Assembly: GCA_035221665.1 (NCBI GenBank)
Contig: CM069161.1
Span: forward strand, 18,352,001 to 18,416,000
Length of the DNA: 64,000 bases
From: Okamejei kenojei
Lineage: Eukaryota
Direction: 5' to 3'
Made by a program: the position numbers and the translations under genes. The notes beneath the pieces are model-generated. The model was not told the DNA's origin, did not search any database, and saw only the letters and a list, made by a program, of their open reading frames with translations. Shown here piece after piece: positions 19,788 through 62,266 of this stretch (positions are counted from its first letter, which is position 1; every line of letters begins with the position of its first letter).

Positions 19788-20595
19788 CATAGAAAACATA
19801 GAACCGTACTGCACAGGATCAGGCCCTTCAGCCCACAAGATTTGTGCTGAACTTGATGGCAAGGTAAACCAATCTCCTCATGTGGTCCATATCCCTCCAT
19901 TCCCAGCATATCCACGTGCCAATCTACAAGCCTTTTAAATACCCCTATCATATCTGCTTCCACCAACACCATTGGCAGCACATCCGAGGCACCTGCTACA
20001 CTCTGTGTAAACGATTTGCTCTCCACATCTCCTTTACATTTTGTCTTTCTCGCTTTAAGGCTACGCCCTCTAGCCCTTGACATTTCCATCCTGGGATAAA
20101 GAGGGACATAAATAGGGACTAGTCTTTCCTATTTATGCCGAACATGTTTTTATATATTTCCATCAGGTCACCCTGCAACCTCTGACTCTCCAGAGAAATT
20201 ATCCAAATATGTCCAACCTCTTCTTGCAGCTAAGATGGCATTCTGGTAAACATCTCCTGCACTCTATCCAAAGGCTCCACAACCTTCCTATAATGGGGCG
20301 ACCAGAATGACTTTACTCCAAATGCAGCTAAACCTTCTTCTTCTTGCATATGGCATGCACAGCCTAAGGTTGCAGATCAAATTGTTCTCTTTGATCTTGT
20401 TTGTGCACATCGGGTTGATTGCATTAGTCGAAACAGGGCGGACCATATGAAGGTTTCAATCTCCCACTCTGCAGCTAAACCAAAGACCTATAAATATGTA
20501 ACACGACTTGCTGATTTTGTACTCAAAGCCCCAACTTTGAGGGCAAGCATACCAAACGCATTCTTTACTACCCCATCTACTTGTGCTGTCACAAT
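19788..20595 (-). mobile_element. Old CR1 LINE 3' fragment (hosts the 20335-20469 insertion)
   Basis: CATAGAAAACATAGAAC tail; minus-strand SRARGRSLK...SFTQSVAGASDVLP...FKRLVDWH, a degenerate CR1 ORF2 end. Confidence 0.7.
20335..20469 (-). mobile_element. 135-bp non-autonomous retroelement (Ingi/Vingi- or RTE-type tail) with 5' HDV-like ribozyme fold, copy 1
   Basis: 12-bp TSD TGCAGCTAAACC (20323-20334, 20470-20481); 3' end CCATATGCAAGAAGAAGAA; homologous to 60411-60547. Confidence 0.8.
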
Positions 20596-49389: not shown

Positions 49390-52190
49390 GTATCATGTAC
49401 CTACCTTCTCTCCATACCCCCTGATCCCTTCAGCCACAAGGACCACATCCAACTCCCTCTTAAATATGGCCAATGAACTGGCCTCAACTACCTTCTGTGG
49501 CATAGAATTCCACAGATTCACCACTCTCTGTGTGAAAAACAATTTTCTCATCTCGGTCGTAAAAGACTTCCCCCTTATCCTTAACTGTGACCCCTTGTCC
49601 TGGACTTCCCAACATCGGGAACAATCTTCCTGCATCTAGCCTGTCCAACCCCTTAAGAATTTTGTAAGTCTCTATGAGATCACCCCTCAATCTTCTAAAT
49701 TCCAGCAAGTACAAGCCGAGTCTATCCAATCTTTCTTCATATGGAAGTCGTGCCATCCCAGGAATCAGTGTGATGAACCTTCTCTGTACTCCCTCTATGG
49801 CAAGAATGTCTTTCCTCAGAATAGGAGACCAAAACTGTACGCAATACTCCAGGTGTGGCCTCACCAAGACCCTGTACAACTGCAGTAGAACCTCCCTGCT
49901 CTTGTACTCAAATCCTTTTGCTATGAATGCCAACATACCATTCACTTTCTTCACAGCCTGCACCTGCATGCCTACTTTCAATGACTGGTGTACCATGACA
50001 CCCAGGTCTCGCTGCATCTTCCCTTTTCCTAATCAGTCACCATTCAAATAATAGTCTACCTTCCTGTTTTTGCCACCAAAGTGGATAACCTCGCATTTAT
50101 CCGCATCTGCCATGTATTTGCCCACTCACACAGTCTATCTAAGTCATCCTGCAGCCTCTTAGCATCATCCTCACAGCTAACACTGCCCCCCCAGCTTTGT
50201 ATCATCCGCAAACTTCGAGATGTTGCATTTAATTCCCTCGTCCAAATCATGAATGTATATTCTAAATAGCTGGGGTCCCAGCACTGAGCCTTGCGGTACC
50301 CCACTAGTCACTGCCTGCCATCCTGAAAAGGACCCGTTCACTCCTACTCTTTGCTTCCTGTCTGCCAGCCAGTTCTCTATCCACATCAATACTGAACCAC
50401 CAATACCGTGTGCTTTAAGTTTGTATACCAATCTCTTGTGTGGGACCTTGTCGAAGGCCTTCTGAAAGTCCAGATATAACACATCCACTGCTTCTCCCTT
50501 ATCCACTCTACTAGTTACATCCTCAAAAAATTCAATAAGATTCGTCAGACATGATTTACCCTTCGAATCATGTCTGACTTTGTCCAATGATTTCACCACT
50601 TTCCAAATGCGTTGCTATCCCATCTTTAATAACTGACTCTAGCAGTTTCCCCACTACCGATGTTAGACTAACTGGTCTGTAATTCCCCATTTTCTCTCTC
50701 CTCCCTTTTTAAAAAGTGGGGTTACATTAGCTACCCTCCAATCCTCAGGAACTACTCCAGAATCTAAAGAGTTTTGAAAAATTATCACTAAGGCATCTGC
50801 TATTTCTGGGGCTACTTCCTTAAGTACCCTGGGATGCAGCCTATCTGGCCCTGGGGATTTATCGGCCTTTAATCTATTTAATTTACCTAACACCACTTTC
50901 CGGCTAACCTGGATTTCACTCATTTCCTCCATCTCATTTGACCCGCGATCCCCTGCTATTTCCGGCAAATTATTTATGTCTTCCTTAGTGAAGACAGAAC
51001 CAAAGTAGTTATTCAATTCGTCTGCCATGTCCTTGTTCCCCATGATCAATTCACCCGTTTCTGACTGCAGGGGACCTACATTTGTTTTAACTAATCTTTT
51101 GCACTACACATATCGATAAAAATGTTTGCAGTCAGTTTTTATGTTTCCTGCCAGTTTTCTCTCATACTCCATTTTCTCTTTTCTAATTAAGCCCTTTGTC
51201 CTCCTCTGTTGGTCTCTGAATTTCTCCCAGTCCTCTGGTCGGCTGCTTTTTCTGGCTAATTTGTACGCTTCATCTTTTTCTTTGATTCTATCCCTGATTT
51301 TCTTCGTTATCCACGGATGCGCCACCTTCCCTGATTTATTCTTTTGCCATACTGGGATGAACAATTGTTGTAGTTCATCCATGCAGTCTTTAAATGCCTT
51401 CCATTGCATATCCACCGTCAACCCTTCAAGACTCAATTGCCAGTCCATCTTGGCCAATTCACGTCTCATACCCTAAAAGTTACCTTTCTTTACGTTCAGA
51501 ACCCGTGTTTCTGATCCAACAATGTCACTCTGCATCCTAATGAAGAACTCAACCATATTATGGTCACTCTTGCCCAAGGGGCCACGTACAACAAGGCTGC
51601 TAACTAACCCTTCCTCATTACTCAATATCCAGTCTAGAATAGCCTGCTCTCTCGTTGGTTCCTCCACATGTTGGTTTAGAAAACTATCCCGCATACATTC
51701 CAAGAAATCCAATTCCTCAACACCCCTGCCAATTTGATTCACCCAATCTATATGTAGATTGAAGTCACCCATTATAACGGTTTTACCTTCGTTGCACGCA
51801 TTTCTAATTGCCTGTTTGATGCCATCCTCAACTCCACTACTACTGTTAGGTGGCCTGTAGAGAACACCCACTAGCGTTTTCTGCCCCTTAGTGTTTCGCA
51901 GCTCCACCCATATCGATTCCACATCCTCCAAGCTAATGTCATTCCTTTCTATTGCGTTAATCTCCTCTCTAACCAGCAACGCTACCCCACCTCCTTTTCC
52001 TCTCTGTTTATCCTTCCTGAATATTGAATATCCCTGGATGTTCAGCTCCCAGCCTTGGTCACCCTGGAGCCATGTCTCCGTGATCCCAACTATATCATAA
52101 TTACTAATAGCTATCTGCACATTCAACTCATCCACCTTATTACGAATACCCCTCGCATTGAGACACAAAGCCTTTAGGCTTGTTTTTACA
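49390..52190 (-). pseudogene. CR1 ORF2 (APE endonuclease-reverse transcriptase), broken by several frameshifts
   Basis: Consecutive ORF-track pieces 51473-52474, 51104-51469, 50663-51049, 50177-50599, 49484-50017 and 49393-49635 in domain order. Confidence 0.9.
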
Positions 52191-52479
52191 ACACTCTTGG
52201 CCCTTTTACAATTATGTTGAAAAGTGGCCCTTTTAGATTTTTGCCCTGGATTTGTTTTCCTGCCACTTTTCACCTTGCTACCTATTGCTCCTATCCTCAT
52301 TTTACACCCCTCTGTCTCTCTGATCACACATTTAAGAAACCCTCCACTTCTTATTCTCCGTTTGTTATTTTTTTCTTCTTTCCTCCCTACGTGTTGCGTC
52401 TGACTGCTTCTCTTCTCTGCCTCCTGCCTCACAAACGGACTACTTGCCTTCTCTATTTGAGTCCCTCCCCCCAACCGAT

Positions 52480-53415
52480 CTAGTTTAAAGTCTCCCCAGT
52501 AGCCTTTGCAAATCTCCCCACCAGGATATTGGTTCCCCTCGGGTTCAAGTGCAACCCGTCATTTTTGTACAGGTCACACCTTCCCCAAAAGAGGTCCCAA
52601 TGATCCAGAAACTTGAATCTCTGCGCTCTGCACCAGTCCTTTAGCCACGCATTTATCCTCCACCTTGCTCCATTCCTACTCTCACTGTCGTGTGGTACAG
52701 GCAGTAATCCTGAGATTGTTACCTTTGCGTACCTTCTCCTTCACACTCCTCCTAACTCCCTAAATTCTCCTTTCAGGACCTCCTCTCTTTTTCTACCTAT
52801 GTCATTGGTACCTATATGTACCACAACCTCTGGCTCCTCTCCCTCCCATTTCAAGATATCTTGGACACGTTCAGTCACATCCCGGACCCTGGCACCAGGG
52901 AGGCAAACTACCATCCGGGTCTCCTGACTGCGTCCACAGAATCGCCCATCTGACCCCCTAACTATAGCGTCCCCTATTACTGCTGCCCTCCTCTTCTTTT
53001 CCTTACCCTTCTGAGCAACAGGGCCGGTCTTTGTACCGGAGGCCCGGTCGCTGTTGCTACCCCCAGGTAGGCTGTGCCCCCCAACAGTACTCAAACAGGA
53101 ATACTTATTGCCAAGGTGTACAGCCACCGGGGTACTCTCTAGTCCCTGCCTCTGCCCCTTGCCTCTCCTAACCGTGACCCACTTTTCTGCCTCCTGTGGT
53201 TTTGGAGTGACCACCTGTCTGTAGCTCCTCTCTATGGCTTCCTCACTCTTCCTGACCAGACGGAGGTCATCGAGCTGCTGCTCCAGGTACCGAATACGGT
53301 CCATTTGGAGCGCCAACTTGACGCACCTGGCGCAGATGTGGATGTCTGGAGAGCTATCTGACTGCATGACCTCCCACATCTGACATCCAGAACAGTAAAC
53401 TGCCCTGGCACTCAT
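52480..53415 (-). pseudogene. CR1 ORF1 (zinc finger/coiled coil plus SGNH/GDSL esterase), frameshifted near 52745
   Basis: MSARAVYCSGCQMWEV...HICARC...LEQQLDDL...VIGDAIVRG...CLPGARV...VVVHIGTND. Confidence 0.85.
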
Positions 53416-54877
53416 CCTCCCCCTTACCCTGGATACAATACAATGTACAATACAATGCAAGGATTTTAGCTGAAAGAAATCAGCAGGGATCTGACTGCCA
53501 ATCAGCTGCTCCCTCGAGTCGTCTTCCACCAATCAGCGGCTTCCTCAACTGCGAGCTGGGACTTTTGAACTGCGAGCTGCGAATGGAACGTTACGGATTT
53601 GGGCTCCTCCCACTGCAACCGCTCCTGGTCCTCATTCAACTTTCTTGCGTTCTTGGTATCCTGTCTCACCCATCTTTCTCAATGTTCTAAAACTTACTTT
53701 TACCAACTCTGGAGTTTGATCATCATAATGAAAGATCATCACAATGAAACATTGACTTTGTTTCTCTCTCTGCAGATGTTGCTTGACCTGCAACATATTT
53801 CCAAAACTTTCTGCTTTTATTTCAGATCCCCAGCATCTGCATTATTTTGCTTTTTGCCGTGTTTTCTTATGTGGGGAGTTGAGGGATGTAAGCAATTAGT
53901 GTCATGATGTAAGTTGGCCATGAATTAACTGAACATTGGAAAACGCTGGAGGGGGGGAAGGAGTAGGTGGTTGAAGGTTTAACTCATTCCTTCCTGGGTA
54001 TAAAATGGAAATATTTAGTTTGGGTTGAAGTCAGCAAGTGAAATGGCTGAAGATACAAGGAACTGCAGATGCTGGAATTTGAGCAAAATACTAGATGGTG
54101 GTGTAACTCAGCAGGTCAGGCAGCATCTGTGGAGAAAATGGATAACAGAGTCTGAGGGGGTCGCTGGTCGGTGCAGACTCATTGGGCCGAAGGGGCTGTT
54201 TTTTCCATGCTGTATCTCAAAAACTAGATCAAAAACTAAATTTAAACTCAGGAAGCCTAGTTTCTTTCACTATCAGCATTAGGGGGCCACTTTCATTAGG
54301 TCTGGCCCTGGTTAGAAATGAAGGTGGTCTGCCTGATCAACCAGATGGCAGGAGTTTGATGCAACTGAAAGGCTCACTGCTCTGTTTCAAGCAGCAGTTA
54401 ATATTCAACACTGTTTCTTAAATCCAGGCCTCATAAAGATAGGTTTTGAAAATAAACCTATAGTTTTATTGACTGGTTGGTGTCAAGTTTACTGAATTCA
54501 AATTCTCAAACTGCCATTCTAGGAGTATTGATGGATTCCCAGTTAAATAAACATACTTGCTACACTGACTTATACATCTCTGTTTTACCACTCCAGCTTC
54601 ATAACCATTGGGTTATTCTACCTCATTATCACTCTTCTTTATTAACTAATCTAGCTAGTTAACACCTGTATATTCGATAACATAACTAGGACATTAAATT
54701 CGACCTTATTAGTTTTACTAACCTAGTTTTACTAACTAACTACACTTCTAGAATCAAAAGTTCCAAATGAGAGTGGAAGCATAATTTTCATTTGTATATC
54801 CTAATTAGTTTTCTAAGATCCTAAACAGATCAGAAAACATTAAATCTCACTTTCTGCCTATCTTGGTTACATGCCAA

Positions 54878-55980: not shown

Positions 55981-56074
55981 GTATAAAGAGGGGACGTTCT
56001 ATTTAATAATCAAGCGGGAAAGTTACATTGAACTGGGTCCAATAATAATATTGTTTTATCTCTCATGTGTTCAG

Positions 56075-56291
56075 TCCAGGCAGACCCCGGAAGGAGAGTT
56101 CTTACCCCTGGATCAGTGTGAGTTGGATGTCGGCTTTGGCACTGGCGCCGACCAGCTGTTCCTTGTTTCACCTCTGACTATTTGCCATGAAATAACCCCT
56201 GCCAGCCCCTTCTTTGATCTATCCCAACGATCTCTCCGAAGTGATCAGTTTGAGATTGTGGTGATACTGGAAGGAATTGTCGAGACTACTG
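56075..56291 (+). CDS. KCNJ3: Kir3.1/GIRK1-like coding exon 2 (cytoplasmic domain incl. G-loop)
   Basis: Acceptor TGTGTTCAG|TCC; [39 protein letters not shown]...[14 protein letters not shown]; donor G|GTAAGT; 217 nt, phase 0 to phase 1, in frame with exon 1. Confidence 0.95.
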
Positions 56292-56676
56292 GTAAGTCCG
56301 TTTATTTATGCAGGTCGTTAATATATTTTATTTCCTCTTTGTATATAATCAATAATACTTCCAACTGCCTCCTATGTCCTTTTACCCATCAAGATTTTTC
56401 ATTGTGGAATGTCATTAGGTTTAACTGGACCTACTTTTTAAATGAGCTTGAATGAGGGCAGGGAAGGTTTACAAGGATGTTGCCAGGACTCGAGGGCCTG
56501 AGCTACAGTGAGAGTTTGGACAGATCTACACTTTATTCCTTAGAGCACAGGAGGCTGAGGGATGATCTTATAGAGGTGTATAAAAAGAGGACGATTTATT
56601 GGGAGCCTAAGGGGCAACTTTCTCACTTAGAAGGTGGTGGGTACGTGAAACAAGCAACAAGCTGGAATCTTGAGCA

Positions 56677-59245: not shown

Positions 59246-60410
59246 TTCCTCTCACATCCCAAAGATGTTCAGATTAGGTGGATAATTGGCCTCTGTAAAT
59301 GGCCTCTGTAAATGAGCCCCTATTGCGTCAGCTGTGGATGAGAACATGTGAAGACATAGAACTAGTGTGAATGGGTGATTGATGGTTGGCATGGATTTGG
59401 TGGGCAGAAGGACCTGTTTCCATGCTGTATCGTTGTACCAAACTAAACTGAAGTGTCTGGCAGAGGGAGCATTGGAGTCTGAAATCTTATTATGAAACCA
59501 CATAATTCCAATGTTTGCCTTTAACAGACAGGAGGTAAGCACTCTGCTCAGCAGTATTATCTCTTATCAATGCCTGAGTATAATCTTCTCCCTTATATTT
59601 CCAAGAAAAAGGATTGAAATCTATTTATTAAAATCTACGTAGATAGAGGGTTTTTTTTAATGAGCTATTTCCTGCTTCGTGTTGGCTGTTCAATTCTTGT
59701 GACGAAGCAATAGAGAAAATAGCATTTCTTTATGATCTGTTTGGCCGTCTTTTTAATGAGGTTTGACAGTGCAAGAGAAAGGAAATGTTTTTATGTTTTC
59801 AACAAATCAGAGTAGTAAACAGTCTGAATGGTGTGGTCTTTGTCGATATTGGCTGCTTTTCTGAGACACCGCCTCCTGTAGATCCCTTCGATGCTGGGGA
59901 GGTCAGTACCTGTGATGGACCGGGCAATGGCCACCACTTCCTGTAGCCACCTTCATCCACAGGCGTTTGAGTTGTCAAACCAGGCCATGATGCAACTGGT
60001 CAGAACGTTTGCAGTGTGCCTTCACTGGAGGTTTTGGAGGGACCCCTTGCTTTTTTGCCTCCTTCTTGCTCAAACCATGCAACATTTCCAGGCATTTCCG
60101 TCAGTTTATGGGTGAGGAATCTCCACTCATCAAATATAAGATCAAACTGTTTTACTAAATCAAAAGAAGAAATTGTACAAGTCATTGGTGAGACCACACT
60201 TGGAGCACTGTGTGCAGCTCTGGTAGCCCAGCTAGAGGATGGATGTCATTAAATTGGAAAGACTGCAGGTCTGCAGAAATTAGAGATTCGCCAGGATGTT
60301 TTCAAGAGGGAGATTTAGCTCTTAGGGCAAAAGAATCAAAGGATATGGGGGAAAAAGCAGGAACGGGGAACTATTTTTCTATGTTTTTATGTTTCTTTAT
60401 CTGGGCTTGT

Positions 60411-60464
60411 GGAGTGGGAGATTGCAACCTTCACGTGGTCCGCCCTGTTTTGACAAATGCAATC
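60411..60464 (+). ncRNA. Minimal HDV-like self-cleaving ribozyme (predicted)
   Basis: P1 GGAGTGG/CCGCCCT (G1.U wobble, one A-C mismatch), P2 GATTGCA/TGCAATC, P3 ACC/GGT, L3 TTCACGT, vestigial P4, J4/2 CAAA with C60454 in the catalytic position. Confidence 0.7.
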
Positions 60465-60547
60465 AACCTGTGCGCACAATCAAATAAGATCAAATAGAAC
60501 AAGTTGTCCTACAACTTTAGGCCGTGCACGCCATATGCAAGAAAAAG
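60411..60547 (+). mobile_element. 137-bp non-autonomous retroelement with 5' HDV-like ribozyme fold, copy 2
   Basis: TSD ATCTGGGCTTGT (60399-60410, 60548-60559; extendable by one G); 3' end ACGCCATATGCAAGAAAAAG. Confidence 0.85.
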
Positions 60548-61470
60548 ATCTGGGCTTGTGCGTGAGTTGCAGGGAGAGGTTGAAAGACTGGGCCTTTTCC
60601 CTTTGGAGCATTGGAGGCCGAGGGTTAATCTTTTTGAGATCTACAAAATCCCGAGGGGCATGGATAAAGTGATCATTTACAGTCTTTTTCCCAGGATAGA
60701 GGATTCTAAAACTAGAAGGAATAGGGTTAAGTGAGAGAGGAAATTTAAGAGGGATCTTAGGGTCGACTTTTTAACTCCGAGGTAGTTCATATCTTTAATG
60801 ACGTGCCAGAGGAAGCTATTGAAGTGAATACAATTGCGACTTTTAAAAGACATTTGGACAGATGTATGAATAAGCCAATATTCATGAGTATGAGTAGTCC
60901 AATATGGCAACTTGGTCAGCATGGACTAGGAGGCCCAAAGGGCCTGGTTCTGTGATAAAGAGCTCTATGACTGAGAAAGTATCCTTCCTCTTTTATCACT
61001 TCCTTTTCAATGGCAAATATTCACCATTATGACACGAAAAGTTTCCGACATGCCTCATCATCCCTCATTCCAATCTTCAAAGTCTAATATTGACTTTCAT
61101 AATAGAGTCAAACATTATCTTTCTAACCCTACACATGCAGTAGGTTTCTGGCGGTACGCTGCTTTGATTGTACAAAATCATGCCATGCATCAGAGGGGCA
61201 TATTTTGTGCATGAGTAACACTGTATGTAGTTGACATCATATTTAGACAGACAGCTTCCTCCAAAAATATCCACGTGTCAGTTTTCGGAAGTGAACTCTC
61301 AATAATCACATTTCGAGCACTTCAGTTGATAATGTGGTTCCATTTTAGCATTTTGAAGAAGCACAATGAACTGCATGGGTTAAGGGCTGGACTGATGCTA
61401 ATCATTTTATTCAAATAGAAAATTTGACAAAGCTTGCTTTAATTCTGTACTGATGTCGTGATTGTTTGTT

Positions 61471-61782
61471 GCATGTCTCTGCATGCGCGCGGTGTCATGC
61501 CTCTGCATGCGCGCGGTGTCATGTCTCTGCATGCGCGCGGTGTCATGTCTCTGCATGCGCGCGGTGTCATGTCTCTGCATGCGCGCGGTGTCATGTCTCT
61601 GCATGCGCGCGGTGTCATGTCTCTGCATTGCGCGGTGTCATGTCTCTGCATGCGCGCGGTGTCATGTCTCTGCATGCGCGCGGTGTCATGTCTCTGCATG
61701 CGCGCGGTCATGTCTCTGCATGCGCGCGGTGTCATGCCTCTGCATGCGCGCGGTGTCATGTCTCTGCATGCGCGCGGTGTCA
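61471..61782. repeat. 24-bp minisatellite, ~13 units, CpG-rich
   Basis: Unit TCTCTGCATGCGCGCGGTGTCATG, nearly identical copies without spacers. Confidence 0.95.
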
Positions 61783-61859
61783 ATGGCTTTAGATGGGACG
61801 GTCCCTTTGAAGAGACCAATGTTGGATTAATCACTGGAAATAAAATAGCCTTCCTGATT

Positions 61860-62266
61860 GTCAGAAAGGCAGAGACACCAACACCACCCTGGCCACACAC
61901 TCATTTCACCCTTGCCATTGGGAAGAAGGTACAGGAACCTGAAAACTATAACGTCTGGGTTCAGGAACAGTTTCTTACCTACAGCCATTCGGCTATTAAA
62001 CACAACAACCTCAAATGAGCTCTGAACTGCATGCACTATTATTGTGTTTTTTGTACATGTGTGTGTGTGTGTATATCTATGATCTCTATATATATGTGTG
62101 TATTTGTGAGTATGTGTATATACACACACACTGAACCTTTGTTCTCACTCTCGTTTATTATACTGTTTACAGTGTACTATATTTACATATTCTGTTATGC
62201 TGCTGCAAGTAAGAATTCCATTGTTCTATCTTGGACATATGACAATAAAACACTCGACTTTTGACT
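61860..62266 (+). mobile_element. Rex1-like LINE 3' fragment
   Basis: CACCACCCTGGCCACACACTCATTTCACCCTTGCCATTGGGAAGAAGGTACAGG...TTCAGGAACAGTTTCTT; tail ATGACAATAAAACACTCGACTTTTGACT. Confidence 0.7.

Follow-up and report, generated by a model that had tools for sequence, protein, structure and literature searches.

A short Vingi-type retroelement with a predicted P4-less HDV-like ribozyme at its head in an intron of a Kir3-type channel gene of Okamejei kenojei

What kind of element is a 137-bp insert with matching short flanks in an intron of a channel gene, how did it come there, and can it cut the transcript in which it lies? These questions were raised by the window, the 64,000-nt stretch of Okamejei kenojei DNA analysed here, for which an earlier note had described a minimal HDV-like ribozyme joined to a LINE tail. 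Our analysis points to a non-autonomous deletion product of a Vingi-type LINE, headed by a predicted P4-less HDV-like ribozyme that likely cuts before G1 and likely copied in trans by the LINE protein, a reading to which we give a probability of roughly 0.8. Sequence and coordinates agree with the insert of 137 bp and the target-site duplication (TSD) of 12-13 bp noted before. The flanking direct repeat is identical at 13 of 13 positions (60399-60411 against 60548-60560), and since its thirteenth base is G60411, the TSD is 12 nt long and the element starts at G60411; the 5' boundary, placed earlier within 1 nt of the predicted cleavage site, is exactly that site. With six substitutions and one indel, this copy is like the average copy of its family. 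The features are collected in Table 1.

Table 1. Positions in the window of the insert, its parts and related features
Feature	Position	Strand	Basis or remark
Bipartite non-autonomous Vingi-type element	60411..60547	+	137 bp; family majority 138 nt
Left TSD, 12 nt	60399..60410	+	family TSD median 11 nt
Right TSD	60548..60559	+	direct repeat
Predicted P4-less HDV-like ribozyme, 54 nt	60411..60464	+	helix order, descriptor, sister-family comparison
P1	60411-17/60440-46	+	predicted HDV-like fold
P2	60420-26/60458-64	+	predicted HDV-like fold
P3; L3	60427-29/60437-39; 60430-36	+	predicted HDV-like fold
P1.1; loop; J4/2	C60432-G60447; 60448-53; 60454-57	+	predicted HDV-like fold
Predicted catalytic cytosine (C75 equivalent)	60454	+	opens J4/2 in family heads; intact in 64/78 copies
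G-to-A change of this copy	60413	+	gives A.C mismatch in P1
Part common to partner LINE 5' end	60411..60486	+	blastn 83-88% to L138, L155, L154, query 1-76
Post-ribozyme segment, predicted to pair with 3' end	60470..60478	+	10 bp in family majority, weakened in this copy
Deletion junction	60487..60503	+	gap between 5' and 3' blastn matches; absent as such from either LINE end
Part common to partner LINE 3' end	60504..60547	+	last ORF codons, stop 60518-60520, short 3' UTR
3' pairing segment	60523-60532	+	inside LINE-derived 3' part
GAA-type tail	60539-60547	+	end of LINE-derived 3' part
Older second family copy	20337..20469	-	own 12-nt TSD; L3 decayed; antisense to channel gene
Coding exon 2 of Kir3-type host gene	56063..56302	+	Pfam IRK_C match

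A LINE sharing both termini with the insert, as the earlier note had proposed to look for, was found and is of Vingi type. Two loci of about 3.05 kb (L137, L138) carry the head, the APE endonuclease, the reverse transcriptase (RT) and the tail in one span with a single ORF, and a third (L089) has the same tail behind a protein C-terminus. The short element consists of the first 76 nt of this LINE, a junction of about 17-22 nt, and the last 39-44 nt, which blastn matched to the LINE 3' end; longer internally deleted intermediates also occur (L112, L141). The L089-type 3' end gave 725 genome candidates and the endonuclease region 57. At the other end, the first few bases are often missing from LINE copies. 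No intact ORF of this LINE, here called family A, was present in the 20 loci examined, and all copies seen were broken. Its closest protein (P0001, 1019 aa) is 75% identical, and L137 is colinear with residues 31-1019. No RNase H family was found in P0001 at E<=1, and it is the absence of RNase H that separates Vingi from Ingi (PMC13708176). Pfam recognised the APE endonuclease and the RT on pieces of L137 and L138. In the RT tree, where F2 was left out, C (L226) was dropped as too short and no named Vingi protein was among the rows, seven families formed one clade (100/99) with relatives of about 1000 aa, apart from rows that we take to be Nimb-like and CR1-like. When the genome was searched with PF14529, the top 30 loci and 15 more proved to be other LINEs that lacked the family A head, and none of 127 pattern matches in a metagenome scan with P0001 was confirmed. 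One young-family LINE (L066; G000:C2:28223500-28231000), presumably Nimb/I-like, carries a gag-like ORF1 together with an APE-RT-RNase H frame that is intact over 1276 aa. An inverted 3' piece lies directly upstream of the head in 8 of 20 LINE loci of one set (L143, L144, L147-L149, L153, L154, L156) and in 7 of 20 of another (L282-L286, L292, L293); these pieces resemble twin-priming inversions running to the RNA 5' end.

The short element belongs to a large family. A DNA search of the 2.76-Gb genome gave 3,404 candidates, 40 of them scored; the exact 22-nt head motif occurred 9,563 times and the exact 22-nt tail motif 3,509 times, with 0 occurrences for either reversed control. The head motif was present at 25 of 90 tail-anchored loci (the first 90 of 100 listed tail matches, which all lie within the initial 62 Mb of contig C1), which together with its 9,563 exact matches gives a rough figure of 34,000 copies. 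All but one of these 90 loci were short copies or pieces of them. The 5' ends were not randomly truncated: 68 of the 90 began at base 1-2 and 11 at base 3-8, ten were truncated or disrupted, and one was a LINE end. After removal of the LINE and one duplicate, the remaining 88 copies differed by about 5% from the column majority, and judged by this and by the broken ORFs the family looks old. A TSD was detectable in 45 of 59 full-length copies (median 11 nt, mostly 10-13 nt). The base before the element was T in 36 of these 59 (background 29%, p=3e-7) and G in just 7; the T is partly the last TSD base and partly an extra base, and we infer that it may arise when an A added to the cDNA without a template anneals to the target site. 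An extra G at the 5' junction is the signature left by a cap, and no G excess of that kind was seen in the 59 copies. Contigs from four sequencing runs of other organisms also carry the family, with loose ends that pile up at the same two boundaries; no empty insertion site was among the joints listed for them.

The nested helix order that the earlier note had written for the first 54 nt is there in all its segments, from P1 through J1/2, P2, P3, L3, P3', P1', the following G and its loop to C60454 and P2', except that the third pair of P1 is a mismatch of A60413 with C60444. In the family majority this position is G and all 18 pairs form, so the consensus does not lack the P1, P2 and P3 pairing. 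An HDV descriptor gave 41 matches in 1.68 Mb of fetched loci, all at the heads of these LINE-type families, against 0 in 3.84 Mb of Markov sequence; the 60411-60547 copy itself fails it because of the P1 mismatch. The family A head matches the HDV criteria of a G1 pair, the L3 U..CG motif and a catalytic C opening J4/2 (descriptor of PMC6326823), a descriptor that also wants a purine after the catalytic C, where the LINE head has U. It is the smallest head among the sister families, with a P1.1 of one Watson-Crick pair. The earlier remark on an unusually small fold with almost no P4 was thus right as to size; P4 is absent altogether, and the P4-less form is inherited from the LINE itself. The proposed Infernal search did not reach the HDV gathering score: Rfam gave no HDV match on 1.2 kb around the insert, and on 86 nt, among 4227 families, only two matches in the correct place and far under the cut-offs, RF02682 (E 5.7; 10.5 and 17.5 bits against 44) and RF00622 (E 5.2; 9.2 against 35), both models that expect a P4 region. 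Simple folding of the head, by a method without pseudoknots, gave no signal (z=+1.2).

Variation within the family was also compared with the fold. The three frequent head variants (positions 8, 32 and 45) all fit the structure, compared with 49 of the 162 changes that are possible; they affect J1/2, a U-A/U.G pair and the base that follows the catalytic C. Rare substitutions showed no depletion at paired positions (3.8%) relative to unpaired ones (2.4%) or to the 3' positions (3.4%), and all pairs and core bases are kept in only 12 of 78 copies, both as expected for neutral decay after insertion. Applied to some 34,000 copies, this proportion would leave a few thousand potentially active ribozymes in the genome. 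In the LINE of family A (heads of L146 and L155) the ribozyme is also an open frame continuous with the ORF, in which bases 47-49, within J4/2-P2', form the first in-frame AUG.

Stronger information on the fold came from sister families. A protein search found further LINE families at 30-40% identity, among them four Vingi-type families, B-E (L217-L236), which have GAA tails and whose HDV-like heads, 67-95 nt long, are distinct; three more (F, F2 and F3) came from a search with RF00622. An HDV-like head stands at the start of each of these families. Across the six families A-F, which have 30-50% protein identity to P0001 (60-75% for A), and with helix registers picked for best pairing, 106 of 108 helix cells pair, the two exceptions both lying in the single, 5'-truncated copy of family E, and at least two Watson-Crick pair types occur at 14 of 18 positions; these counts exclude F3, whose P1 register is an artefact of a truncated seed, and become 120 of 126 cells and 15 of 18 positions with it. 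J1/2 is 2 nt in all six, the region from P1.1 to J4/2 ranges from 7 nt (A) to 47 nt (D), and the catalytic C, the L3 U..CG motif and the G1 pair are kept in all families. The covariation that had been proposed as a check is therefore seen across the six sister families; within family A there is none beyond one-sided subfamily variants. Rfam on the heads of B, C, D and E and one LINE of A (31 kb) returned a single weak HDV match, in family D (E 6.7). No large short-element family was found for C (84 candidates; 19 of 20 loci run on into LINE sequence).

The two ends of these elements also appear to match each other. Across seven families, the 30 nt that follow the ribozyme find their best partner in the 35 nt ahead of their own family's tail, which took rank 1 in all 7 columns and in 6 of the 7 rows (permutation p=1/5040); in this test E, and the tails of F and F3, rest on single copies, and several duplexes had been spotted by eye beforehand. 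Against shuffles, the pairing was matched by 4-12 of 1000 for A, D, E, F and F3, and was not significant for B (112 of 1000) and C (117 of 1000). The stem of the short element has 10 bp and at its inner end extends one pair beyond what is possible in the majority LINE; beside it a 7-bp hairpin has arisen. From the modelled duplexes we infer that both ends may form one recognition unit.

As a mechanism, Pol II would transcribe a source copy through host read-through, an internal promoter or both, and between release from read-through and an internal Pol II promoter we see the balance as about even. Self-cleavage 5' of G1, which we hold to be probable, would fix the RNA 5' end at that base, as the L1Tc/NARTc ribozyme cuts just 5' of +1 (PMC3383444). 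The segment behind the ribozyme would pair with the 3' UTR and make both ends one template unit, and such a clamp would explain why both were kept in the deletion product. The LINE protein would then mobilise the short RNA in trans, with target-primed reverse transcription from the GAA tail leaving TSDs of 10-13 nt. The same origin could be combined with a head that no longer cleaves; the 5' end would then be set by an internal Pol II promoter within the first ~76 nt, and the fold would be retained for some other role, such as end protection or protein binding. In Pr77, promoter and ribozyme share the same bases (PMC3383444); the missing P4, the one-pair P1.1 and the weak Rfam scores would suit an inactive head, and a fixed 5' end of the 138-nt element is expected from a promoter too, so the 5' ends do not separate the two readings. 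This alternative is nevertheless unlikely in our view, given the core bases kept in all families, the natural P4-less HDV-like ribozymes on record (PMC10879173, PMC6326823), the fast cleavage that is possible with a one-pair P1.1 (PMC13635239), and a base -1 at which G is not in excess.

The host gene is a + strand inward-rectifier channel gene of Kir3 type, whose best solved relatives are GIRK2 chains. The element lies in sense in the second coding intron, as had been said before, and exon 3 begins near window position 77,500, about 17 kb past the element and outside the window. The same intron holds a tandem array of ~21-nt units with repetitive open frames (61439-61900), and the first coding intron a near full-length broken LINE on the - strand (49484-53532), which we take to be CR1-type. 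Whether this copy now serves the gene as a co-opted intronic ribozyme of the CPEB3 kind, tuning Kir3 mRNA by cutting before splicing, can be judged from its position and its fold. Besides the sense position well before the next exon, its catalytic C and L3 are intact, and in two contigs of other organisms the final 24 and 30 bases of the element are followed by the same 3' flank, a weak hint of shared insertion that is under the 31-letter bar. Against this stand its average load of changes and the A.C mismatch in P1, the most mutation-sensitive helix of the CPEB3 ribozyme (PMC9901934). In a nearest-neighbour model without pseudoknots and with P2 held open, the P1 probability was 0.0 with 10-50 nt of upstream flank, the TSD pairing with P1' instead, whereas 32 of 49 other copies with their own flank exceeded 0.5. 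The majority head placed in the same flank reached only 0.00-0.26, so the site itself is unfavourable. The suggestion that this copy could cut the nascent pre-mRNA is thus not borne out, with P1 mismatched and out-competed by the upstream TSD in the folding model. Significant cutting of the channel pre-mRNA is unlikely on this modelling, co-option is improbable, and a decayed, neutral insertion is most likely.

An ordinary tRNA-, 5S- or 7SL-derived Pol III SINE with a LINE tail and a ribozyme shape by chance would fit the size and copy number, and has next to no probability, as the head is the LINE's own 5' end, which refutes it, no tRNA, 5S or 7SL head with A and B boxes was found, a B box was missing from its usual place even when one mismatch was allowed, and the descriptor control was empty. 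The earlier label of a SINE-like element mobilised by an Ingi/Vingi-type LINE therefore holds for the missing Pol III promoter and the Vingi-type partner; more exactly, the element is a bipartite, internally deleted LINE. With no tRNA, no B box and both termini from the LINE, it is a bipartite non-autonomous LINE like NARTc (PMC3383444, PMC4035085).

NARTc, RIME and SIDER are likewise short and non-coding, have ~77 nt at the start and 30-40 nt at the end in common with their own LINE, and carry an HDV-like Pr77-L1TcRz head that would cut just 5' of base 1, as predicted here (PMC3383444, PMC4035085). In contrast to NARTc, the present family has a vertebrate host, a partner without RNase H, 138 nt instead of 263 nt, a GAA tail, a predicted ribozyme of 54 nt without P4, and tens of thousands of dispersed copies. 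Vingi-1_EE deletion products, SINE2-1_ACar and SINE2-1_AMi also join Vingi 5' and 3' parts by internal deletion (PMC5786205), and the family differs from the non-autonomous Vingi derivatives of that paper in having no tRNA head. R2 SIDE of Drosophila similarly combines a ribozyme head with a LINE 3' end and is released from a co-transcript (PMC3414825, PMC4035085); R2 is rDNA-specific with a restriction-like endonuclease, whereas family A is dispersed with variable TSDs. A short loop in place of P4 is found in drz-Mtgn-1 and the theta ribozymes, but those come from metagenomes and phages (nearly 99% Caudoviricetes, PMC10879173), and the family A head sits on a vertebrate retrotransposon. Short derivatives with a ribozyme at the head are thus already known from trypanosomes and flies, and so are bipartite derivatives of Vingi. 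No Vingi ribozyme, P4-less ribozyme heading a vertebrate element, end pairing or Vingi-CPEB3 link was found in the literature searched, with Repbase, Dfam, patents and most subscription papers outside the search and a prior description possible. The clades listed with 5' ribozymes in PMC5786205 are R1, R2, R4, RTE and Ingi as well as LOA, Vingi not being among them there. If our reading is true, Vingi joins the LINE clades with self-cleaving heads, and the minimal P4-less HDV-like ribozyme, for which PMC10879173 left origin and function open in metagenomes and phages, gains a eukaryotic setting and a clear job. PMC5786205 left open why bipartite short elements arise in only a few clades, and the 5'-3' pairing would suggest an answer that can be tested. 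It also matters for gene-writing templates derived from Vingi, in which both UTRs are required (PMC13708176).

The search with RF00622 also points to the mammalian CPEB3 ribozyme. That ribozyme shares with the family A head the same L3, the G1.U pair, a one-pair P1.1 with adjoining U.U and an intronic sense position, whereas the family A head has other P1, P2 and P3 sequences and no P4, and scores 9.2 bits. By comparison, 30 of 59 scored matches exceeded the 35-bit cut-off of RF00622 (best 66.8 bits), with none above it in 14 control genomes, and they were the heads of the three low-copy Vingi-type families F, F2 and F3 (L257-L276, L279, L294). These heads carry compensatory changes in P2 (e.g. 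G000:C14:40547617-40547690), and in L279 and L294 they lead into Vingi-type ORFs. By eye, the head of family F looks like the Repbase Vingi-2_Gav sequence given in the supplement of PMC5786205. The 5' end of this gharial element, also counted by eye, agrees with the RF00622 consensus at 38 of 40 bases on one side of the P4 interior and at 14 of 14 on the other. According to PMC8233481, the CPEB3 ribozyme had not been found beyond mammals and had no outgroup, and a Vingi relic is present in the human genome (PMC5753468). The sequence likeness suggests that the mammalian CPEB3 ribozyme may be of Vingi origin, the direction from element to gene being drawn from the role of the head across the Vingi-type clade; sister families and the gharial Vingi-2 would then give it outgroups and a source. 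With some reserve we favour a wider picture in which HDV-like ribozymes would be the standard Vingi 5' end, always together with a 3'-clamping segment, the CPEB3 ribozyme a domesticated Vingi 5' end, and the 138-nt element a means of scattering such ribozymes in a vertebrate genome, in this case with tens of thousands of copies of the 54-nt P4-less form, some thousands of them perhaps still able to cut. The Vingi part of SINE2-1_AMi, also given in that supplement of PMC5786205, comes close by eye to the consensus of the CPEB3 ribozyme, and the "unknown" 3' end of the same element resembles the tail of family F3 (L294).
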